From: Aequorivita sp.
Lineage (GTDB): Bacteria > Bacteroidota > Bacteroidia > Flavobacteriales > Flavobacteriaceae
DNA: 64,000 bases
Reading direction: 5' to 3'
Assembly: GCA_048270045.1 (NCBI GenBank)
Contig: JBLWTS010000003.1
Coordinates: forward strand, 10,069 to 74,068
A program made the translations under genes and the position numbers. Numbering within the stretch: position 1 is the first letter of the stretch; the number at the start of each line of letters is the position of its first letter. The notes below the pieces were generated by a model, which searched no databases, was not told the DNA's origin, and was given only the letters and a program-made list of their open reading frames with translations. Shown in pieces: positions 1-38,810 of this stretch.

Positions 1-2077
1 TTTCCCAGGAGGTGGCATTCTTATCATCTTCGTCTGCATCCTTATACATAAAGACCAATTGCGGTAATCCTAAGTGTTCATTATCTTCTTCCTCTTTTGG
101 AGCTTTTTCTTTCTTCTTTTCCTTATCTGCAATTTTCACCCAAAACAATTGTTCAAAATTTTTTCCCGGAGCGGTCAGCGTTGCCTTCATTTGTACCGCA
201 TCTCCTACCTCCAAATCTTCCTTCGGGTTTAGGCTTATTTTTATAGTTCCCTTGTTGGGGCTGCTTTTTACAATATTAAATACATCAGTTGGCTCTTTAG
301 GTTCTCCTGGTTTATCACCGCCGCCTTTCTCATTATTTTTTATGTTGAGTATGGATATTTGCAATTCACCGGGGTCATCCAATCGGTCAAAATAATCATT
401 CTCAACATCCGTAGAAAATTTAATAGTCTTTTCGCCACCCAAAGGTATTTTGGCTACTTCATTTTCACCATTATTTCTTGCATCTATTTTAAAATGAGAA
501 GGGTATCTTTCAGGCTGAAAGGGAATTTCCTCTTTCTGTTTTTTAGCTGGTTTTTTATCTCCTTGCTTCTTCTCATTTTTCTTAATGTCCAATTTAAAGG
601 TTTGACTTAACAACTTCATTAAATCGGAATCTAAAGGAAGGTCTTTAGTAAAGCTCTTTAAAAGTTCTCCTGTATTGGCTGAGGTATCAATATTAACAGC
701 TTGTTTTCTATGTTTCTCTATTTCAGCGAGTCTCCCATCGCTTTTACTCAATTGATTAGCCAAATATTTCCTAAGGTATTGAGTTTCTTCCCCCTCTTTC
801 AATCTATCACGTGAAGCCATAAAAAGCTCTTTTCTAAAGTCATAATTCATTTCCGTACAATCAACGTGAATTAGTAAATGGCTTTTTAATAAGTTGAATT
901 TTAAGGAACGTGAAATAAATTCTGAAGTATAATGTCCATGTACTTGACCGTTCAAGGTAAATAGGACAGACATAGAGTTTTTAAAATATCTTCTTTGGAT
1001 ATTTTCCTTTGTTTTTTTTAAGTCATTATCTTTAACTTTGGTTTTAAAAACAAAACAGGAAACTTTCATTTCTCCTATTGTCTCATCGTTATAAGTTTCG
1101 GAAAATCGATCAGCTAAATAATCCGACTCTTCACTACTTAATCTTCTTTTTAATCCATATAAATCTTGGGTAAGTACTTTATTGTTTGGATATCGTTCTT
1201 CAGTATCCTTTGTTAATATAGGCAAAGCGGGATTAAAAAGAAATTCATTAATGCTTTGATTAAGATCTTGTGCAAATCCTGAATAACCTTTGGGGAATTG
1301 ATAAGAATACATTTTAATAATTGTTCCGGTCGTGAATTTTCTCCCTTCCAGGCCAATATCTAATTGATCAATAGGAAAAGAAGCTATTTTCCCCTCGATT
1401 AATAAATATTCATACCAAGTCTCTTTAGCGTGGTCAGATTCTCTTTTAGGATGCTCCCGGATAAGGGTAAAACCGAAATCTCCATCACTCGAATATCTCT
1501 TGGAAGCTATTAGTTGGTATCTTTTTTTACCACAGAATACAATTGCACCACTACCGCCCATATTATATTTTCCCTGCACAAACTGAACGTCATTTTTATT
1601 GCCTCTTAAAAGAGATAAAAAAGTACTTTCAAAATCTTCGGGATGTTGTCCCTCTCCATTATCATAAACGATAACCGAAGTTGGCTGTTGGCTCCTTGGA
1701 GTTCTAGGCCCTTTGCCATCTGCAATGATCTGAATTTCCTCAGCCTGACTTTTTCTAAATTGTTGTAAATCCCAATTATGATCCGGAAAAAAAGTATCAA
1801 TGGCTTCTTCCATTGATTGCGGAGCATTCTCACCTTTTGGGTCTATACCTGCTTGATAGCATTTTTTTGTCAACAATGCATCAATGGAATTAGTAACCTT
1901 TTCTATAAGTGCCGCAATGGGATTAGATTGTTGATTTTTAACTACTCCATAATTACTTTTGTTATTTCCTAACGGTTTCCAATTATGATCCGCGAAAATG
2001 GACGGATATTTATCAAGTATAGCACCTAAGTCCTCTTCATCCTTTGCATTGAAGAGATCAAAAAAAAGTTTTTGCAT
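1..2077 (-). CDS. GHKL (HATPase_c-type) ATP-binding protein, partial; C-terminus runs off the window
   Basis: Not in the ORF track because there is no stop inside the window. I translated the minus strand codon by codon from ATG at 2077 down to about position 360 with no stop, and read the last ~360 nt to position 1 less rigorously, also seeing no stop: MQKLFFDLFNAKDEEDLGAILDKYPSIFADHNWKPLGNN... Bergerat-fold motifs are present: IEKVTNSIDA (N box), VYDNGEGQ (DxGxG, G1), GKYNMGGSGA (G2). The + strand ORFs 12..395 and 359..610 and the - strand ORF 1606..1833 are out-of-frame or antisense shadows. Confidence 0.8.
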   Translation of the reverse strand, partial: MQKLFFDLFNAKDEEDLGAILDKYPSIFADHNWKPLGNNKSNYGVVKNQQSNPIAALIEKVTNSIDALLTKKCYQAGIDPKGENAPQSMEEAIDTFFPDHNWDLQQFRKSQAEEIQIIADGKGPRTPRSQQPTSVIVYDNGEGQHPEDFESTFLSLLRGNKNDVQFVQGKYNMGGSGAIVFCGKKRYQLIASKRYSSDGDFGFTLIREHPKRESDHAKETWYEYLLIEGKIASFPIDQLDIGLEGRKFTTGTIIKMYSYQFPKGYSGFAQDLNQSINEFLFNPALPILTKDTEERYPNNKVLTQDLYGLKRRLSSEESDYLADRFSETYNDETIGEMKVSCFVFKTKVKDNDLKKTKENIQRRYFKNSMSVLFTLNGQVHGHYTSEFISRSLKFNLLKSHLLIHVDCTEMNYDFRKELFMASRDRLKEGEETQYLRKYLANQLSKSDGRLAEIEKHRKQAVNIDTSANTGELLKSFTKDLPLDSDLMKLLSQTFKLDIKKNEKKQGDKKPAKKQKEEIPFQPERYPSHFKIDARNNGENEVAKIPLGGEKTIKFSTDVENDYFDRLDDPGELQISILNIKNNEKGGGDKPGEPKEPTDVFNIVKSSPNKGTIKISLNPKEDLEVGDAVQMKATLTAPGKNFEQLFWVKIADKEKKKEKAPKEEEDNEHLGLPQLVFMYKDADEDDKNATSWE

Positions 2078-2640: not shown

Positions 2641-3060
2641 TTATTTATTTTTATCCAGAATATCTTCCAGCTCCTTTTCAGTAAGTTGAAGTTGATTAGT
2701 TAAAAGTTCAATAGCCTTTTTAATCTGGCTGCCAGATTCACTCATTATTTTATCCGCCTGCCCAAGCACCCTTAATTCATCCTCCAAATAAGCTAATTTT
2801 TTTCGTAGAATGTATGGACTTTTAGCCTCATTAACTTGAAGCTCTTTTTCCTCATCACTCATCATTGGCTCCTTTCCACACAAAAGCCAAGAAGGATTGA
2901 GTTCAGGGCATTTATTATATAGTAACTCCGCATCAAAAGAGTTCCTGCTCTTCCAGTTTGAATATACCTGTGGTGTAATTCCTAAAAACTTGGCAAAGTC
3001 TACGTCAGTTTTAAAGCTGTAGTAGTCCTTAATCTTATCTAACATTATGGCCTTATCCAT
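2641..3060 (-). CDS. HTH transcriptional regulator, phage CI-repressor/XRE-like N-terminal domain with helical C-terminus
   Basis: 139-aa ORF. The N-terminus DVDFAKFLGITPQVYSNWKSRNSFDAELLYNKCPELNPSWLLCG looks like a CI-type HTH. The gene is divergent from the sigma/Cas12f-like operon. Confidence 0.7.
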   Translation of the reverse strand: MDKAIMLDKIKDYYSFKTDVDFAKFLGITPQVYSNWKSRNSFDAELLYNKCPELNPSWLLCGKEPMMSDEEKELQVNEAKSPYILRKKLAYLEDELRVLGQADKIMSESGSQIKKAIELLTNQLQLTEKELEDILDKNK

Positions 3061-3085
3061 AACAATAAAATATTTGTGTATAAAA

Positions 3086-3117
3086 TTTGCACAATAAACA
3101 AAACGTTTATATATTTG
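3086..3117 (+). promoter_or_regulatory. Candidate Bacteroidota-type promoter for the 3183..5660 module
   Basis: TTTG at 3086-3089 and TATATTTG (matches TAnnTTTG) at 3110-3117, about 65 nt upstream of the ATG at 3183. Confidence 0.35.
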
Positions 3118-3134
3118 ATTTTCAGTATGTAAAA

Positions 3135-3155
3135 CTGTTCAATAAATGTGAACAG
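3135..3155. promoter_or_regulatory. Perfect inverted repeat CTGTTCA-N7-TGAACAG; candidate operator
   Basis: Read directly from the sequence. It sits between the candidate -7 box and the first ORF, in the divergent intergenic region shared with the CI-like repressor gene. Confidence 0.4.
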
Positions 3156-3182
3156 ATTATTTAATCTGTAAATATAGCTAAA

Positions 3183-3371
3183 ATGAAGCAAACTTATAAT
3201 GCAACCCTTGTCAAGGCGCTTGCCAAGAAGTATGAGATATCGCCGCGATATGTTAGGTACTGTCTCAAAGGAGAGCGATCCCCCTGTTTTGCAGAGAAAA
3301 TTAAAAAGGATTATACAAGATTTATAAGTAAGATAGAAAATATAATAGAAAAGGAATGTAAATCAAAATAG
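3183..3371 (+). CDS. Small (62 aa) basic protein, possible HTH
   Basis: ORF track. ALAKKYEISPRYVRYCLKG is HTH-like. The stop lies 6 nt before the sigma factor ATG, so the two are probably co-transcribed. Confidence 0.5.
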   Translation: MKQTYNATLVKALAKKYEISPRYVRYCLKGERSPCFAEKIKKDYTRFISKIENIIEKECKSK

Positions 3372-3377
3372 TGTCCC

Positions 3378-4160
3378 ATGAAACCAAGCACTTTCATACA
3401 ACTAAAAAAAGGCTGCCCAAACGCCCTTACCGCTATTTATGATGAGTACCAGAGGCGTATTTTTGGGTTGGGCAGGTACTTGCTACGCGACCACTTTGTG
3501 GTGGAATGCCTGATGCAGGACACCTTTTTAAAACTCTGGGTGCACCGCGACCGCATCGAGCGGCCTGAACACATCCTTTTCTTCCTCCTTTTCGTAATGA
3601 AAAGAGAGTGCATCTCCTATTACACCCGACCCAGAAACGACTTCAATAGAAAAATCTGCTCCCTCGATAGTTTTGATAATTATCAAAACTATATGGCGGG
3701 CTACGATCCTCTGACCGAGGCCGAAACCCTAAGGTTACAAGCCAAGGAACAACAACACTTTGAGCTCATACAAAGTGTACTGCCCCTATTAGATACCGAA
3801 GGAAAACACCTAATCGAGCTTTGCCTAAAATACGGCTTCCATTACAAGGCCATTGCTCAAGCCATGGGTAGCAGTGTTACAGACACCAGCAACAAAGTGA
3901 AAAAAGCCATTGCAGCCCTTAAGATCATTGTGGACCAAGGCGGAACGCTTAACAGCAAACAAAAGCCTGCCACCATCAAACTACAAGGTGCAATGACCCC
4001 CGAACAGGCGGAAATACTAAAACTGCGCTGTGAAAATAAATACTCCTTCGCCGACATAGCCCAAACCCTCAACCGCCCCCAAAAGGAAATCCATCGAGAA
4101 TTTATAACAGCATACAAACTCATACAACAAAAACATCACCTACAAACACAATCCGCTTAA
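3378..4160 (+). CDS. ECF-type sigma-70 family factor with an extra C-terminal sigma4-like HTH module (260 aa)
   Basis: Region-2-like DTFLKLWVHRDRIERPEHILFFLLFVMKRECISYY. Region-4-like LIELCLKYGFHYKAIAQAMGSSVTDTSNKVKKAIAALK. A second region-4-like segment follows: MTPEQAEILKLRCENKYSFADIAQTLNRPQKEIHREFITAYKLI. It is about 100 aa longer than the ordinary ECF sigma at 51876..52355. Confidence 0.85.
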   Translation: MKPSTFIQLKKGCPNALTAIYDEYQRRIFGLGRYLLRDHFVVECLMQDTFLKLWVHRDRIERPEHILFFLLFVMKRECISYYTRPRNDFNRKICSLDSFDNYQNYMAGYDPLTEAETLRLQAKEQQHFELIQSVLPLLDTEGKHLIELCLKYGFHYKAIAQAMGSSVTDTSNKVKKAIAALKIIVDQGGTLNSKQKPATIKLQGAMTPEQAEILKLRCENKYSFADIAQTLNRPQKEIHREFITAYKLIQQKHHLQTQSA

Positions 4161-4213
4161 TGTGAAAACTTTAGGACCTAAATTCGTAATTCCAAATCCG
4201 AAATACCACCAGC

Positions 4214-4340
4214 TGTGGAATTTGAAAATTGAAAATTAATAATGTAAACCCGAGGGTGCTTGTAGACACTTAAGGTGAGGCCAACCGCACTCACTAAATG
4301 CCTGGGCATATACAACGCGTGAGTACTTACTTTTTTTTAA
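4214..4340 (+). ncRNA. Candidate guide RNA copy A: conserved ~105-nt scaffold (4214-4316) plus a divergent 3' tail
   Basis: Direct repeat of 5675-5781, about 80% identical by eye. It has three hairpins (4259-4274, 4275-4294, 4298-4309). Their stems are conserved between the two copies and their loops differ. It ends in ATACAAC, followed by sequence that diverges from copy B. See findings. Confidence 0.55.
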
Positions 4341-4559
4341 ACGCTCTTTAAATTGTTTTTGTAAGCCCAAACTTTTAGCCCTCCAACCAGCGAAGCAAGA
4401 GGAAGACAATGCAAAAAGGAAAGAATAATGAACAACTGAGTTGAATAGACTCATACTATTTAAATTTTTCTAACCAACACCCAACGACTGTCACACTGAG
4501 CGCAGTCAAAGTGCATAACCAACAAACAGACATCAGACAACAGAAAACACACAACTGAA

Positions 4560-5660
4560 ATGAAAACCTCCACCCTAAAACTCACCCGAAAACTCCAGCT
4601 CATCATAGACCTGCCAGAAGGGGAGGAGCGCAACGAAGCTTTTGAAAAACTCTATCGCTGGCAGAACCGTGCTTATCGTGCGGCAAACCTGATTGTCTCC
4701 CATCACTATATTCAGGAAATGATACAGGAATTTCTATACCTCTCCGATAAAGTGCAATACAAACTAACCGACGAGATAAAGGACCCTCTGGGCATACTTA
4801 ATCGCTCCCGAAATAACACAACTTATCGTTTGGTATCAGACCGTTTCAAAGGCGAAATCCCAACCAATATCCTCTCCAACCTCAACCGTGCTCTTCTCCT
4901 ATCATTCAACAAGGAGAAGCATGGATACTGGAAAGGGGAGCGGTCGGTAAAAAACTTTAAGAGGAATATGGCCTTCCCTTTTGCCCCTGATGAATGCATC
5001 CACTGCCTGCACTACAACGAGGAAAAGAAAGCCTTTTGCTTTCGATTGTTCAAAATTCCCTTTCGAATCTATCTGGGCAGGGATTCCACCGACAAGCGAA
5101 AGCTGTTGGAAAGGGCAATAGCAGGAGAGACCAGCATCCGCACCTCCCATATTAAATTAAAAGATGGAAAAATATTTTGGCTAGCAGTCTTTCAAATAGA
5201 AAAGGAAAACCACACCCTAAGGCCAGAAGTAATTGCCGAGGCCTCCCTTTCATTGGAATTTCCTATTGTGGTAAAGGCCAATAAAACGAGGCTCACCATT
5301 GGTAGCAAAGAGGAATTCCTGCACCGAAGGCTCGCAATACAGGCAGCGCGGAAAAGAGCGCAAAGCGGTGCCACCTTTTCCCGCTCCAGCAAAGGCACCA
5401 AAAGAAAGCTAAAAGCAGTGGATAGCTTCCATGAAAAAGAGCGCAATTATGTCCACACCCGCCTCCACGTGTACAGCAGAAAGCTAATCGACTTCTGCGT
5501 AAACCAACAGGCAGGAACGCTAGTCCTTTTGAACCAAGAAGACAAAATAGGCATCGCCAAAGAAGAAGAATTCGTATTGCGAAACTGGAGCTATTATGAG
5601 TTAATGGAAAAAATAAAATACAAAGCCCAAAAAGCAGGAATAGAACTTATAGTAGATTGA
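4560..5660 (+). CDS. Cas12f/TnpB-like protein, C-terminally truncated and apparently nuclease-dead (366 aa)
   Basis: The N-terminus KLTRKLQLIIDLPEGEERNEAFEKLYRWQNRAYRAANLIV has the WED/REC-like layout of TnpB/Cas12f. The central FRLFKIPFRIYLGRDSTDKRKLLERAIAGETSIRTSHIKLKDGKIFWLAVFQIEKE resembles the Cas12f WED/RuvC junction. The C-terminus YSRKLIDFCVNQQAGTLVLLNQED...LRNWSYYELMEKIKYKAQKAGIELIVD matches the RuvC-II region and the following helix. The protein stops exactly where the TSQ/CxxC zinc ribbon and RuvC-III would begin. Confidence 0.75.
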   Translation: MKTSTLKLTRKLQLIIDLPEGEERNEAFEKLYRWQNRAYRAANLIVSHHYIQEMIQEFLYLSDKVQYKLTDEIKDPLGILNRSRNNTTYRLVSDRFKGEIPTNILSNLNRALLLSFNKEKHGYWKGERSVKNFKRNMAFPFAPDECIHCLHYNEEKKAFCFRLFKIPFRIYLGRDSTDKRKLLERAIAGETSIRTSHIKLKDGKIFWLAVFQIEKENHTLRPEVIAEASLSLEFPIVVKANKTRLTIGSKEEFLHRRLAIQAARKRAQSGATFSRSSKGTKRKLKAVDSFHEKERNYVHTRLHVYSRKLIDFCVNQQAGTLVLLNQEDKIGIAKEEEFVLRNWSYYELMEKIKYKAQKAGIELIVD

Positions 5661-5674
5661 TTTTTTGGTTTAAT

Positions 5675-5805
5675 TGTGGAATTGTTTATTGCTAATTCTT
5701 TATTGAAAATTGTAAAGAGGGTTCTTGTAAACCCACAAGGTGAGGCCTAGGCACTCACTAAATGCAAAATGCATATACAACGCGTGGGCTCTCTTACCTT
5801 ATAAA
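5675..5805 (+). ncRNA. Candidate guide RNA copy B: scaffold (5675-5781) plus a divergent 3' tail
   Basis: Second copy of the 4214-4316 element, starting 15 nt after the Cas12f-like stop codon. Hairpins at 5724-5739, 5740-5758 and 5762-5774. It ends in ATACAAC, followed by GCGTGGGCTCTCTTACC... Confidence 0.55.
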
Positions 5806-5864
5806 ACATTCCGTTCGCACAGGTCGCGGCATGTCCCCAATTCCCTTGAGTCCTGCCTCCAAAA

Positions 5865-5969
5865 GTCGTGATTCCAACCGTCGTGATTCCAACCGTCGTG
5901 ATTCCAACCGTCCTGATTCAAACCGTCCTCCCTCAAACCGTCCTGATTCCAACCGTCGGGCCCCAAACC
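5865..5969. repeat. Tandem 15-mer repeat (about 7 copies, consensus CGTCGTGATTCCAAC)
   Basis: Read directly. Same family as 13400..13676 and the degenerate copies at 63840..63990. It produces the spurious ORFs 5762..6040 (+) and 5794..5982 (-). Confidence 0.9.
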
Positions 5970-5978
5970 CTTCTTTCC

Positions 5979-6761
5979 TCAAAACACTCCCACAATCCGC
6001 ATCCCGCCACTTTTGGGAATTGCTAACATCTCAGTATTGACCTCCTTATAAAAAGTTATTCCCACCGCTACTACCAATCCAGCCTCCTGTGGCAACTGAG
6101 AAATGGGTAGCGTTATCTCCATTGTCTCCATCTCGATACCAGCTACGGTAAGGGGCAGAATTTCACCCTGCATAAACCCTCCCAAACCGATGACTTCCTT
6201 GCAAAGTGGAAGATATTTTTTATGTTTGTCATTATAGGCATAATTGCTCAAGGCAGCTACATTTATTTGCAGTGCAAAATGCGTAGCTTTCTCCGGACCG
6301 GTAATTTGGGTTTGCGGTTTTATATTGCCAACTTCCCATAGCACTCCGTTTCCGTTTTTATGGAATCGCGGCATTGCCTTTAAGCCTCCTAAACTATTTA
6401 CTAGGGGTTGGAACTTTCTAAATTCAGTTTCAATCAAGTGAGATCCATTGGTGCGCAGGTCCAATTTTCGCCCTCCTTCTGTTCCTTCTCCAAAATAAGC
6501 AATACGCCTAAGTGCCCCACTAAACCTAGCCGACACGCTGCCATCTGCCAAGGAAAGGGAATGAAGTGAAAAACTTTTCCGCAAATCGCGGGCAGCCGTA
6601 CTCCCAACTCCAAATTCAATACTCGAGAGCTTGGTGCGCTCGCTTTGTTTAATGGGGCCTTCAATTTTTTTCCTGACTCTTTGCTGTCCATTTTCATCCA
6701 TATAAAATGTCAGCTCCCCAATGTTTCCGCTTATTCCCGTTAATCCATTTACTCGTGCCAT
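5979..6761 (-). CDS. Hypothetical protein (260 aa), no recognisable domain
   Basis: Long ORF convergent with the Cas12f-like gene. I see no signal peptide and no motif I recognise. Confidence 0.6.
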   Translation of the reverse strand: MARVNGLTGISGNIGELTFYMDENGQQRVRKKIEGPIKQSERTKLSSIEFGVGSTAARDLRKSFSLHSLSLADGSVSARFSGALRRIAYFGEGTEGGRKLDLRTNGSHLIETEFRKFQPLVNSLGGLKAMPRFHKNGNGVLWEVGNIKPQTQITGPEKATHFALQINVAALSNYAYNDKHKKYLPLCKEVIGLGGFMQGEILPLTVAGIEMETMEITLPISQLPQEAGLVVAVGITFYKEVNTEMLAIPKSGGMRIVGVF

Positions 6762-6951: not shown

Positions 6952-7206
6952 TTACTTGCTACTTTGATCTTCACATTTCCCATCCGTCCAAGAAAGTAGT
7001 CCCGCCCGACCAGCGGCGCAGGGGTTCGAGTAGGTCTTTCCATCGCAACCACATACTGGTGCATATTCTAAAGTACACGGCCCATCACTTATTTTGGATG
7101 CATCGATACACGCAGTGGTGTTGGTGCTGCCACAAGAGTTGACTAATAGCAACCCGCAAATAAGAAAAATGGGAGTCCAAAAAGATAGTTTGTGCACTAC
7201 TTTCAT
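6952..7206 (-). CDS. Kazal-type serine protease inhibitor domain lipoprotein
   Basis: Start moved to the ATG at 7206 (MKVVHKLSFWTPIFLICGLLLVNSC, signal peptide plus lipobox Cys). Kazal signature CTLEYAPVCGCDGKTYSNPCAAGRAG. Confidence 0.75.
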   Translation of the reverse strand: MKVVHKLSFWTPIFLICGLLLVNSCGSTNTTACIDASKISDGPCTLEYAPVCGCDGKTYSNPCAAGRAGLLSWTDGKCEDQSSK

Positions 7207-7370
7207 TTCTTGAAATTGTACTACTAATATAAGCCCGTTTGCCTCGAATTCCAAAAATAGGGTGCAAATATATTTAAAACACTAATAATCAAATTTTTAT
7301 GTATTTATTTCTTGAATTTACTAAAGTTTTATTGTAATTCATTTTCCTTCTTTTTAAACGTTAAAAGGCT

Positions 7371-8199: not shown

Positions 8200-10719
8200 A
8201 TGGAATCAATGATGATCTACGCGCCAATAGCAATGGCGCTATTAGGCTTAATCTTTATGGCCGTTAAACGTTCGTGGGTAATGAAACAAAACCCTGGTGA
8301 CGGTAAAATGAAAGAAATAAGCGACCACATTTATGAAGGGGCTTTGGCCTTTCTTAATGCTGAATACAGAGTGCTAGCTATTTTTGTGGTTATTGTAAGT
8401 ATAGCCTTGGCAGTGGTATCTTATATAGTTCCTACCACCCACATATTAATTGTTGTAGCGTTTATATTCGGTGCCGTTTTCTCTGCCTTGGCAGGAAATA
8501 TGGGGATGAAAATCGCAACAAAAACTAACGTTCGTACCACCCAAGCCGCTCGTACCAGCCTACCAAATGCACTAAAAGTTTCTTTTGGCGGGGGAACAGT
8601 AATGGGACTTGGTGTGGCAGGTCTTGCAGTACTTGGTTTAACTGCATTCTTTATATTCTTCTTCCATTATTTTATGGGAGGTATTTGGACCAATACAATG
8701 GATATGACCATCGTTCTTGAAACATTGGCAGGTTTCTCGCTGGGAGCCGAATCTATTGCATTGTTCGCTAGAGTAGGAGGTGGGATCTATACAAAAGCAG
8801 CCGATGTGGGTGCCGACCTTGTTGGAAAAGTAGAAGCAGGTATTCCTGAAGATGATCCACGAAACCCAGCTACTATTGCCGATAACGTTGGAGATAACGT
8901 TGGGGACGTAGCAGGTATGGGTGCCGACTTATTTGGTAGTTATGTTGCAACCGTTCTGGCAGCAATGGTTTTAGGAAATTACGTAATTAAAGATATGGGC
9001 GGAGTAATTAACGACGCATTCGGAGGTATTGGCCCAATCCTGTTGCCAATGGCAATTGCAGGTGTGGGTATCATTATTTCTATTATCGGAACCATGCTCG
9101 TAAAAATCAATAGCAACGATGCAAAAGAATCGCAAGTAATGGGGGCTTTAAATATTGGTAACTGGGTATCTATCGTTTTAGTTGCCATTTCTTGCTTTGC
9201 GCTTGTAAAATGGATGCTTCCCGAAACAATGAATATGAGCTTCTTCGGCGAAGGCCTTCAGGAAATATCTTCGATGAGAGTATTCTATGCTACCCTAGTA
9301 GGTTTGGTTGTAGGTGCGGGAATTTCATCGGTAACAGAATATTACACTGGATTGGGTAAAAAACCAATTCTTAAAATAGTTCAGCAATCGTCAACAGGGG
9401 CTGGAACAAACATTATTGCCGGTTTGGCAACAGGGATGATTTCTACTTTCCCTTCTATCTTACTTTTCGCAGGTGCTATCTGGGCATCATACGCCTTTGC
9501 AGGATTCTACGGAGTTGCCCTCGCTGCTTCTGCTATGATGGCAACTACAGCTATGCAACTTGCAATCGATGCTTTCGGACCTATTAGCGATAACGCAGGG
9601 GGTATTGCCGAAATGAGCGAGCAGGAACCAATAGTACGTGAGCGTACCGATATTCTGGATGCCGTAGGAAATACTACCGCTGCTACAGGTAAAGGATTTG
9701 CTATCGCCTCTGCTGCATTGACTTCCTTAGCTCTTTTTGCAGCTTACGTAACCTTTACAGGTATCGACGGAATCAACATCTTTAAAGCTCCTGTATTGGC
9801 GATGCTTTTTGTAGGTGGAATGGTGCCGGTAGTATTTTCAGCATTGGCAATGAACGCCGTTGGAAAAGCTGCTATGGAAATGGTAAATGAGGTGAGAAGA
9901 CAGTTCCGCGAAATTCCAGGAATTATGGAAGGAACCGGAAAACCAGAATACGACAAGTGTGTGGCTATTTCAACCCAAGCGTCTTTAAGAGAAATGGTGT
10001 TGCCAGGAGTTCTTACAATCGGTTTCCCAATAGTAATTGCTTTCGCTCCCATGCTTTTTGGAATGGATAATATGTCTATCGCCGAAATGCTTGGTGGTTA
10101 TATGGCCGGAGTTACCGTAAGTGGTGTACTTTGGGCTATTTTCCAAAACAATGCTGGTGGGGCCTGGGATAACGCAAAGAAATCCTTTGAAGCCGGAGTT
10201 CTTATCGATGGCGAAATGACATACAAAGGAAGCGAAGCCCACAAAGCCGCAGTTACGGGAGATACTGTAGGAGATCCATTTAAGGATACTTCAGGGCCTT
10301 CGATGAACATCTTGATTAAACTTACCTGTTTGATCGGACTCGTAATCGCGCCTATTCTTGGAAATCACGATGGGGTTGTGTTGGCAAATGAAACTACTTT
10401 AAATGAAACCACTACGAATGAAGTTTATATGATCGATGCAGAAGGTAATAAGGTGCCATTGACCGAAAAGCAAATTCAGTTTATCGAAACAGGTAGAGCC
10501 GTTACTCCCATTCAAAATGGAGAAGACCGCACCCAAACTTTGGTTGAAATGATTAAAAATGACAATAACGATCAAGTTAAAGCCAACGTAACCATTATAC
10601 GAACCATTAACGGGGAACAATCTACCGAAACCCTAACCTTCGCTGGTACCGAAGAAGAGGTTCGCAGCCAAATGAAGGATGTAAAGGGAATGAAAATCAA
10701 GATAAAGGATAAAGAGTAA
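8200..10719 (+). CDS. hppA: Membrane-bound ion-translocating pyrophosphatase with a ~100-aa soluble C-terminal extension
   Basis: 839 aa and multi-TM. Motifs [53 protein letters not shown]. The tail after ...LGNHDG is hydrophilic ([20 protein letters not shown]...KIKDKE). Confidence 0.95.
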
Positions 10720-10963: not shown

Positions 10964-12226
10964 ATGGATTACAACGACCTCGTAACACTGGGAATTTCAT
11001 TTGGACTGGGCCTTCTGGTAGGGTTACAGCGTGAAAAAACCAATCATGAAACAGCGGGAGTTCGTACCTTTACCCTTATTGCAATCCTAGGAACAATCGC
11101 CGGATTCTTAACCCGCGAATACGACAATCCCTTTATACTTCCCATTTTCGGAATTGCCGTAACAGCCTTAATGATTACCGCCAATATTATAATTGCGAGA
11201 AGAGATGAAGATACTTCCGCCGGACAAACCACTGAAGTTGCCGTATTATTGATGTTTGCACTGGGTGCCTATTTGGTTTTGGGCGATCACGTAATTGGAG
11301 TAATCATAGGCGGAGCTCTTGCTATTCTACTATATATAAAAGAATCACTTCATAATTTTATCGATAAGCTTAAGGATAAAGACCTCGGTGCAATTATGAC
11401 TTTTGTTGGCATTTCATTGGTCATTCTCCCAATTCTCCCAGATGAAACCTATGGTCCATTAAACGTACTTAACCCACGCGATATATGGTTAATGGTTACG
11501 CTTATAGTCGGTATTAGCGTTCTGGGCTATTTTGTATATAAATGGGTAGGGAAGAAGGCCGGAATGATATCCAACGGCATCTTGGGAGGAATTATCAGCA
11601 GTACTGCCACCACGGTGAGTTATGCCCGGAATGCTTCGAAAAACGCCAGCATAAGTAAGGTTTCGGCATTTGTTATTATGGCTTCGGTCACGGTTTCAAT
11701 TATTCGCGTAATTATTGAGATTGGAATAGTCGTACCCGAAAAGCTTCCTGCCTTAATAACCCCCTTTGCCATTCTATTTTTATTTATGGCTGTTCTATCT
11801 GTAATTCTTTTCTATACGGTGTCGAAAGATAAATCGGTTGAAGACATGCCAGAACCAAAGAATCCTGCGCAGTTTAAGAGTGCGTTTGTTTTTGGATTGT
11901 TGTACGGACTTATTCTCTTGGCTGTAGCATTTACAGAAAGGGAATTTGGAAACGAAGGACTTTACATCGTTTCTATCATTGGAGGATTGGCAAAAAAAGA
12001 TGCCATTACTTTATCATTGGCACATTCCATAAGTGGAGGATTGGCAACCGAATTGGGCTGGCGACTCATAATGACAGGAGTGCTAGCTAATTTTGCATTT
12101 AAAATCGTTTTGGTAGCTGTGTTGGGGAATAAAAAACTTGTAACTTGGGTAGGTGGCGCAATGTTTCTTTCAATCGTCGCTGGCTTATTACTGATGTGGC
12201 TTTGGCCTGAAGGATGGCATTTTTAA
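10964..12226 (+). CDS. MgtC/SapB-family plus DUF4010 integral membrane protein
   Basis: 420 aa, polytopic. The N-terminus LGLLVGLQREKTNHETAGVRTFTLIAILG is typical of the MgtC family. Confidence 0.7.
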   Translation: MDYNDLVTLGISFGLGLLVGLQREKTNHETAGVRTFTLIAILGTIAGFLTREYDNPFILPIFGIAVTALMITANIIIARRDEDTSAGQTTEVAVLLMFALGAYLVLGDHVIGVIIGGALAILLYIKESLHNFIDKLKDKDLGAIMTFVGISLVILPILPDETYGPLNVLNPRDIWLMVTLIVGISVLGYFVYKWVGKKAGMISNGILGGIISSTATTVSYARNASKNASISKVSAFVIMASVTVSIIRVIIEIGIVVPEKLPALITPFAILFLFMAVLSVILFYTVSKDKSVEDMPEPKNPAQFKSAFVFGLLYGLILLAVAFTEREFGNEGLYIVSIIGGLAKKDAITLSLAHSISGGLATELGWRLIMTGVLANFAFKIVLVAVLGNKKLVTWVGGAMFLSIVAGLLLMWLWPEGWHF

Positions 12227-38235: not shown

Positions 38236-38481
38236 ATGGCAACATTCACTTCTAGTTTACCGGATGAGCTTCTTGAAAATCTTTCGAAAATGGCTAAAGA
38301 GCTTAAAATGCCTAAAAATAAAATTTTAGAAAAGGCGCTTAAAATCTATTTGGAGCAATTGGATAAGGCGGCATATTTAAAAAGCTATAAGCAAATGGCA
38401 AATGATCCAGACATGCTTGCTATGGCCGAAGAGGGTATGGCTGATTATTTTAAACAGTTGGAAGATTTAGAATCAGAATGA
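38236..38481 (+). CDS. Ribbon-helix-helix type II antitoxin
   Basis: 81 aa with an acidic C-terminus. It shares a 4-bp ATGA overlap with the MazF-like gene. Confidence 0.7.
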   Translation: MATFTSSLPDELLENLSKMAKELKMPKNKILEKALKIYLEQLDKAAYLKSYKQMANDPDMLAMAEEGMADYFKQLEDLESE

Positions 38482-38810
38482 AACAAGGAGAGATTTGGAA
38501 TGTATATTTTGATCCTGTTTTGGGAAGTGAACAAGGCGGACGCCGTCTAGCTCTAATAATTTCAGGGAACTTAGCAAACAATAACCTGAACACAATAATA
38601 GTTTGTCCTTTAACATCAAAGCTAAAAAATTATCACGGTAACTTAATCCTGAAACCATCGGCCAATAACGGATTATCAAAAACATCAGAAGTTATGATAA
38701 TTCATATTCGTTCCTTGTCAAAAGAACGATTTTTGAAAAAGATGGGTTCTATTTCAAAATCTGATTTTGATATAGTAAAAGAAGGACTTGACAAAATAAT
38801 AAAATATTGA
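38478..38810 (+). CDS. PemK/MazF-family endoribonuclease toxin
   Basis: 110 aa. MKQGEIWNVYFDPVLGSEQGGRRLALIIS is the MazF/PemK signature. Confidence 0.88.
   Translation: MKQGEIWNVYFDPVLGSEQGGRRLALIISGNLANNNLNTIIVCPLTSKLKNYHGNLILKPSANNGLSKTSEVMIIHIRSLSKERFLKKMGSISKSDFDIVKEGLDKIIKY

Follow-up and report, generated by a model that had tools for sequence, protein, structure and literature searches.

A probable dCas12f-sigma-E RNA-guided transcription locus with two guide RNAs in Aequorivita sp.

The region at positions 2641 to 5795 of a 64-kb stretch of Aequorivita sp. DNA (64,000 nucleotides [nt] of contig JBLWTS010000003.1, the whole of which is called the window here) is very probably an RNA-guided transcription locus, in which a nuclease-dead Cas12f (dCas12f), a co-encoded sigma-E factor and two guide RNAs (gRNAs) would work as they do in Flagellimonas taeanensis. 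Its elements lie in the order hth (a helix-turn-helix gene), a small open reading frame (ORF), rpoE, gRNA A, dcas12f, and gRNA B (Table 1). The system itself is already known from Hoffmann et al. (Nature 2026; PMC13472631), Xiao et al. (bioRxiv 2025; PMC12259091), and the structures PDB 9N9C, 9N9M, 9N9O, and 9N9Q; the locus described here is a further, unannotated example of it and involves no new mechanism.

A preliminary description of the window had pointed to two similar sequences, copies A and B, which diverge after a shared ATACAAC, and had proposed that the tails that follow are candidate guides, possibly aimed at related target sites. The tails read as given there: copy A, with the scaffold end ...GCATATACAAC, continues GCGTGAGTACTTACTTTTTTTTAAACGC after position 4316, and copy B continues GCGTGGGCTCTCTTACCTTATAAAACATTCC after position 5781. 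In copy A the ATACAAC is followed by GCGTGAGTACTTAC and then by a run of eight T residues (T8), at which guide A ends exactly; in copy B it is followed by GCGTGGGCTCTCTT, the first 14 nt of GCGTGGGCTCTCTTACCTTAT.... Because the flanking proteins, the scaffold, and the register are all homologous to the experimentally defined F. taeanensis system, the reading of the two tails as the putative 14-nt guide segments of two dCas12f gRNAs is supported.

In the published system a single gRNA of 85 to 105 nt, which needs no tracrRNA, combines a conserved multi-stem scaffold with a 3' guide of 14 to 16 nt. The F. taeanensis guide has 14 nt; a 5'-G serves as target-adjacent motif (TAM), and the transcription start is found ~46 bp downstream of it (PMC13472631, PMC12259091). 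As a positive control for the register we used the 14 nt that follow ACAAC in F. taeanensis JCM 17757. These match, at 12 of 14 positions, a G followed by TTGTGGGATACCCG. The site precedes susC by ~260 bp and shares its intergenic region with an hth-associated noncoding RNA (ncRNA); this agrees with the published F. taeanensis target and so supports the register. The homologous scaffold end in Flagellimonas locus L002, ...CACATACAAC, is followed by TTGTGGGATACACG, and the guides across related loci all vary a single pattern (GCGTGGGTTCTCTT, GCGTGGGTTCTCTC, GCGCGGGCTCTCTT, GCATGGCCTCTCTT, and ACTTGAGTGATCTC). The two guides of the window differ from each other in the seed, which is GCGTGAG in A and GCGTGGG in B. 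At three places in other loci (L006, 9557 to 9571; L090, 2228 to 2241 on the minus strand; L091, 1132 to 1145 on the minus strand) an extra G stands between ...ACAAC and a GCGTGGG or GCATGGG guide. This G corresponds to the one that serves as TAM at the target, and it looks as though the TAM had been copied from there along with the guide.

The two scaffolds are homologous to each other, with the exact blocks GCATATACAACGCGTG and GCACTCACTAAATGC in common as well as a stretch of 31 nt that is 84% identical, and they are also homologous to the F. taeanensis gRNA and to nine other gRNAs that lie beside dcas12f genes. The alignment with these 10 related gRNAs gave a consensus structure of three hairpins, in which 5 base pairs are kept through double (compensatory) changes. 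When 11 related scaffolds were made into a covariance model and the full window was searched with it, exactly these two copies were found. The gRNA B scaffold is 95% identical to that of gRNA 2 in locus L007. By analogy with F. taeanensis, the 5' end of gRNA A likely lies near 4246, and that of gRNA B is likely near 5711; each RNA would then be ~85 nt long, with a scaffold of ~71 nt ending in ATACAAC and a 14-nt guide at its 3' end. No Rfam family matched between positions 3000 and 7500.

Signals for the start and end of the RNAs are less regular. Several gRNAs that are not the first of their locus, gRNA B included, have a ATTTGAAAATT-like motif 10 to 15 nt upstream of GAGGGT, and this motif may correspond to the Bacteroidota -7 promoter element, whose TTTG part it resembles. 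In several related gRNAs, six to nine T residues in a row come after the 14-nt guide. The possible terminator that the preliminary description saw in copy A, a GTGA/TTAC hairpin followed by T8, is present, but the hairpin has only 4 pairs, too weak for the intrinsic-terminator scan, which made no call at this T8. A generic scan for sigma-70 promoters and terminators was uninformative for this Bacteroidota sequence.

The proteins encoded between and beside the scaffolds are orthologous to those of the known system. Residues 3 to 365 of the dcas12f product align to residues 3 to 364 of PDB 9N9C chain A, the "Nuclease-deactivated Cas12f" of F. taeanensis (E = 2.1e-167). Against an active Cas12f (9NZO_B, 506 amino acids [aa]) the alignment stops at chain residue 414, and the nucleases run ~90 residues further; the nuclease C-terminus would therefore have no counterpart in dCas12f. 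The TAM-duplex residues named in PMC12259091 are partly kept (S106, Y89, and R90), with M85 replaced by N and H110 by R. Homologues of dCas12f are abundant in Flavobacteriia (1052 matches), the closest named ones being from Aequorivita viscosa, and carry such database labels as "hypothetical," "transposase," and "IS605 OrfB." The rpoE gene lies on the same strand as dcas12f and adjacent to it, and its product is a sigma factor of the extracytoplasmic function (ECF) type. Residues 4 to 260 align to residues 4 to 261 of PDB 9N9Q chain C (RpoE), the C-terminal segment included (E = 1.4e-85).

If the locus works as its F. taeanensis homologue does, both gRNAs would be expressed and loaded onto dCas12f, which would bind double-stranded DNA carrying the 5'-G TAM followed by a sequence identical to the guide and form an R-loop there. 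dCas12f would then recruit the co-encoded sigma-E, through the latter's sigma-4 domain and C-terminal domain, and RNA polymerase with it, and transcription would begin, in the absence of a conventional promoter, ~46 bp downstream of the TAM. The predicted sites are G followed by GCGTGGGCTCTCTT for guide B and approximately G followed by GCGTGAGTACTYAC for guide A. In the source organism such sites presumably lie outside the window.

In the published system guide seeds resemble the hth-associated ncRNA at its 5' end, and the targets overlap this ncRNA (PMC13472631); we therefore scanned for sites of the ncRNA type. A target expected of such a system has the 5'-G TAM and precedes, in an intergenic region, a gene in the right orientation (susCD, a two-component system, or rpoE-dcas12f). 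In L001 and L002 the ncRNA between hth and rpoE begins GGCG(T/C)GA..., contains GGTATACCAGTACC, and ends ...CACGCC. A scan of one genome per species with the pattern GCGTGRG-N13-23-GGTATACCAGTAC gave at least 119 loci. Guide B is identical over 14/14 positions to the commonest allele of this site at the ncRNA 5' end (30 of 119 among the matches listed), and a further 39 sites match it at 13/14. When the gene downstream was taken within 2.5 kb on the same strand, 13 of the 30 perfect guide B sites listed precede susC, 2 precede rpoE, and 11 precede other ORFs, while 4 are cut by the ends of their loci. Pooling the genome scan (at least 119), the viral match, and the metagenome scan gave 141 sites; among these matches listed, 131 have a G at position -1, and the gene within 2.5 kb downstream on the same strand is susC for 53 and an rpoE of the dCas12f type for 8. 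The identity of SusC was confirmed by TIGR04056.

Guide A matches a rarer form of the site than guide B does. The genome scan gave one 12/14 site among the matches listed, GCGTGAGTACTCTC, upstream of susC in a Gillisia metagenome-assembled genome (L042). A metagenome scan designed for guide A (GCGTGAGT-N10-24-GGTATACCAGTAC) gave 21 loci. Contigs L143 to L145 among them carry cccggG followed by GCGTGAGTACTCAC, which agrees with guide A at 13/14 with the sole mismatch at position 12, and one more site (L140) matches at 12/14. Downstream of these guide A-like sites there is a susC in L145, L140, and L042; the L145 site adjoins a divergent hth, and a 991-aa SusC and a SusD-sized ORF follow ~0.5 to 0.6 kb further on. 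The first 11 nt of guide A are thus shared with real TAM-flanked sites upstream of susC, and the proposal that the two tails are aimed at related targets is upheld, in that A and B match alleles of one type of site in other genomes.

In scans of viral contigs the general pattern turned up once, and the A-type pattern had no match. No Aequorivita contig is among the at least 119 loci listed, and homologue searches with the target-linked SusC and the ncRNA-linked 73-aa HTH protein returned no Aequorivita among the 120 proteins listed. L090 and L091 carry the ncRNA and gRNAs in cis, and their guide-target pairs are imperfect: either the seed has mismatches, or the pairing is shifted by 1 nt and an additional G follows ACAAC. 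On the opposite strand, the 3' arm of the ncRNA in L002 (~9060 to 9073, minus strand) reads aagagG followed by GCGTGAATACTTAA, a 12/14 match to guide A with a perfect 6-nt seed, pointing toward hth, and the same reverse-oriented site is found in L003 to L005. Since the two ends of the ncRNA are complementary, a further seed match in reverse orientation is present in every module.

Within the window itself, exact matches to the tails were sought on both strands from 10 nt upward, and none reached 12 nt, which extends to all 64 kb what the preliminary description had noted by eye for part of it. Over 14 nt, guide A matches the window at 11/14 at best and guide B at 10/14; the mean best match of dinucleotide shuffles is 11, so that these are at chance level. 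Windows of 16 nt in 11 registers, with mismatches allowed, and a list of all GCGTG seeds gave nothing above chance in the window. The best-looking site, G followed by GCGGGACTACTTTC at 6990 to 7005 on the minus strand, was rejected, having a seed mismatch at position 4 and lying inside an ORF. There is no susC in the window: a 911-aa ORF has CarboxypepD_reg domains only, and an 832-aa ORF is an aldehyde dehydrogenase fusion.

Several observations weigh against a two-guide locus of the F. taeanensis type. No guide target was found in the window, sites that match the guides being seen in other genomes only, and the hth-associated ncRNA is absent from the locus, since its core GGTATACCAGTACC is missing and the intergenic region could not be aligned with the ncRNA regions of L001 and L002. 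The others concern gRNA A. It is the more divergent copy with the lower covariance-model score, its first stem is shifted or partly broken, and its single-sequence fold is no more stable than shuffles (z = 0.28). Guide A has no 14/14 site among those listed from the genome and metagenome scans, its best being 13/14 and 12/14, and its closest orthologue, the A-like guide of A. viscosa (L006), GCGTGAGTTCTTGA, differs from it beyond position 8 and by an indel. These features of copy A would fit a locus in which only gRNA B is functional and copy A is a decaying duplicate, whose tail, with its weak hairpin and T8, would now chiefly stop transcription between rpoE and dcas12f. We consider this unlikely. 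The scaffold of copy A still reaches 75.5 bits and keeps all invariant positions, its guide has exactly 14 nt before the T run as in other gRNAs, and A. viscosa likewise has a gRNA at this position, after rpoE and before dcas12f. Moreover, the 11 nt of guide A that match TAM-flanked sites upstream of susC compare with a published assay in which guides of >10 nt were active (PMC13472631).

A second alternative is that the tails are structural or terminator elements and not guides, their conservation coming from RNA folding into a P5-like hairpin. The F. taeanensis guide has been called an "inflexible guide" and folds partly into a P5 hairpin, forming this stem-loop in the binary complex (PMC12259091); in tail A a 4-bp hairpin can form ahead of the T8, and tail B shows 93% identity with its closest orthologues. 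The preliminary description had held that tails as conserved as the scaffold would have to be structural, but this rule fails here, because tail B is conserved among orthologues as a result of the target sequence itself being conserved. The tails also vary more than the scaffold, with a mean pairwise identity of 0.60 versus 0.84. The same 14 nt of the F. taeanensis gRNA pair with target DNA according to chromatin immunoprecipitation sequencing (ChIP-seq), reporter assays, and cryo-electron microscopy (PMC13472631, PMC12259091). Tail B, furthermore, equals TAM-flanked sites over 14 nt in 30 genomes listed, some of them upstream of susC, which a purely structural element does not predict. A structural role alone is thus very improbable, and guide segments are the reading that we retain.

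One more explanation is that the element is a transposon of the TnpB/IS605 type or what is left of a CRISPR-Cas12f array. In that case the repeats would represent omega-RNAs, CRISPR repeats, or the ends of a transposon, and the tails would be spacers or sequence flanking the transposon, with a use in DNA cleavage or immunity. dCas12f aligns to TnpB and Cas12f nucleases with E values of 1e-16 to 1e-43, some of its homologues bear the transposase labels mentioned above, and the gRNAs of such systems have been proposed to descend from CRISPR repeat-spacer units (PMC13472631). With type V-F CRISPR-Cas12f (Cas14) and the TnpB omega-RNA system the locus shares the protein fold and ancestry, a guide at the 3' end, and a 5' TAM or protospacer-adjacent motif. 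In contrast to these, its RuvC is incomplete, the protein stopping where nucleases continue for ~90 residues; it has no tracrRNA, CRISPR array, or adaptation genes, and its guides are fixed and conserved and are not acquired spacers. Nothing like tnpA, cas1, or cas2 lies in the 0.8 kb between hth and rpoE or in the 0.3 kb from the end of gRNA B to the next gene, and the guides match conserved chromosomal regulatory sites, not mobile-element sequences. We rejected type V-F CRISPR-Cas on the grounds that there are only two repeat units of ~65 nt, separated by the effector gene, and that the effector is truncated; we rejected an IS200/IS605 TnpB transposon because there is no adjacent tnpA, the scaffolds lie outside the ORF, and the nuclease C-terminus is missing. 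This explanation is extremely improbable. Another parallel is TldR (Wiegand et al., Nature 2024, cited in PMC13472631), which is likewise a nuclease-dead protein of the TnpB/Cas12 lineage with a 3'-guide RNA and a conserved chromosomal promoter region as its target. TldR represses by blocking RNA polymerase, and no dedicated sigma factor accompanies it; the co-encoded sigma-E with a dCas12f-binding domain points to activation as the outcome here.

Table 1. Features of the predicted dCas12f-sigma-E locus and its surroundings (positions in the window)
Feature	Positions	Strand	Length or sequence	Remarks
hth	2641-3060	-	139 aa	CI-repressor-type helix-turn-helix, divergent from rpoE; Pfam Phage_CI_repr, E = 1.4e-5
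Inverted repeat	3132-3158		AAACTGTTCA / TGAACAGATT	hth-rpoE intergenic region, 72-98 bp from hth start; candidate HTH operator
Small conserved ORF	3183-3371	+	62 aa	Directly upstream of rpoE; no Pfam or NCBIfam match
rpoE	3378-4160	+	260 aa	dCas12f-associated sigma-E with extra C-terminal domain; Pfam Sigma70_r2 and r4
gRNA A scaffold	4252-4316	+	~65 nt	Covariance-model match, 75.5 bits, E = 2.5e-15
Guide A (putative)	4317-4330	+	GCGTGAGTACTTAC, 14 nt	Register from F. taeanensis gRNA
T8 run	4331-4338	+	8 nt	Ends gRNA A; probable transcription stop inside the rpoE-dcas12f interval
dcas12f	4560-5660	+	366 aa	Nuclease-dead, C-terminally truncated Cas12f by PDB alignment; no Pfam match
gRNA B scaffold	5717-5781	+	~65 nt	Covariance-model match, 88.7 bits, E = 2.3e-18
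Guide B (putative)	5782-5795	+	GCGTGGGCTCTCTT, 14 nt	Register from F. taeanensis gRNA; commonest site allele among those listed
Tandem repeat	5850-5958		GTCGTGATTCCAACC, 15 nt	~6-7 copies, 87% matches; downstream of gRNA B

The locus resembles that of F. taeanensis in a dCas12f that is ~70% identical over its full length, in a sigma-E with the C-terminal domain, in an adjacent hth, and in single-guide RNAs with the scaffold end ...ATACAAC, a 14-nt 3' guide, and predicted G-TAM sites upstream of susC/susD. It differs from L001, from L002 to L005, and from L007 to L010 in its layout: there a single nucleotide separates rpoE from dcas12f, and in L001, L002, and L007 to L010 the gRNAs come after both genes, whereas here the two genes are separated by 399 bp (4161 to 4559) that hold gRNA A and the T8 run. 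With this separation dcas12f may need a promoter of its own. Unlike the published system, in which an hth-associated ncRNA is frequent though not universal, the locus has neither this ncRNA nor a self-target, and it has two gRNAs with different seeds, a CI-type hth product longer than the 73- to 97-aa type, and the extra small ORF.

An unannotated locus of A. viscosa (L006; GCA_027213845.1, JAPWGU010000001) is its syntenic orthologue, with the order hth, small ORF, rpoE, gRNAs, dcas12f, and gRNAs and with a dcas12f in the same 90% cluster. It alone shares the split of rpoE and dcas12f, with a gap of 574 bp that holds two gRNAs, the A-like guide being between the two genes. It differs in having four gRNAs, two before and two after dcas12f, where the window has two, and in a type II cas9-cas1-cas2 upstream. 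By comparison with this locus, the ORF at 1 to 2077 (minus strand) of the window was considered as a possible cas9 and rejected, its sole match being a weak one to HATPase_c_3; the flank of the dCas12f locus is therefore variable. The same 139-aa hth gene is present in A. viscosa at the same position, and the 62-aa ORF is near-identical there (~8446 to 8634); this ORF sits where other loci carry the hth-associated ncRNA. In the published system hth is diverse and only loosely linked, and inverted-repeat HTH operators lie <=50 bp from it (PMC13472631). Besides the inverted repeat in Table 1, a second one is visible by eye in the same intergenic region at ~3074 to 3094 (TTGTG-N11-CACAA) and is another candidate operator for the HTH repressor.

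Simple repeats unrelated to that downstream of gRNA B also flank the gRNAs of relatives, with a period of ~7 at 9650 to 9690 and 11240 to 11330 in L006 and at 11270 to 11300 in L001. A 260-aa ORF at 5979 to 6761 (minus strand), convergent with dcas12f and without a Pfam or NCBIfam match, has 22% identity (E = 1e-7) to a 248-aa ORF at the same place beside dcas12f in L007 to L010 and, judging from this similarity, may be a conserved neighbor of dcas12f. Further downstream, a 100-aa ORF (6952 to 7254, minus strand) contains a Kazal-type serine protease inhibitor domain (E = 1e-6). Domains of this type are unusual in bacteria. Two small overlapping ORFs in an apparent intergenic gap at 38236 to 38810 (plus strand) resemble, by eye and from their sequence, a toxin-antitoxin pair. 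In Flagellimonas, the dCas12f-sigma-E locus adjoins a tyrosine integrase and conjugative-transfer genes (TraM and TraG-like; L002, 11717 to 12967; L003, 8483 to 17700), which suggests that it is carried there on an integrative conjugative element.

The Aequorivita loci could represent a sub-lineage of their own, in which a gRNA with a promoter-like TTTG motif and a T8 stop was inserted between rpoE and dcas12f and broke their 1-nt coupling. One dCas12f-sigma-E pair would then serve two guides (GCGTGAG... and GCGTGGG...) on two alleles of ncRNA-marked susCD promoters, and the internal terminator would set the ratio of sigma-E to dCas12f. We offer this as a tentative and rather doubtful idea; if true, it would amount to a two-branch RNA-programmed regulon. 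The first descriptions of RNA-guided activation by dCas12f and sigma-E date from 2025 and 2026, and the locus adds to them an example with two guides and an unusual position of a gRNA within the operon, whose guide segments could be recognized by a reader from the raw sequence. The sites G followed by GCGTGGGCTCTCTT and G followed by GCGTGAGTACTYAC are concrete predictions with which the regulated nutrient-uptake (susCD) operons of the source organism may be found.

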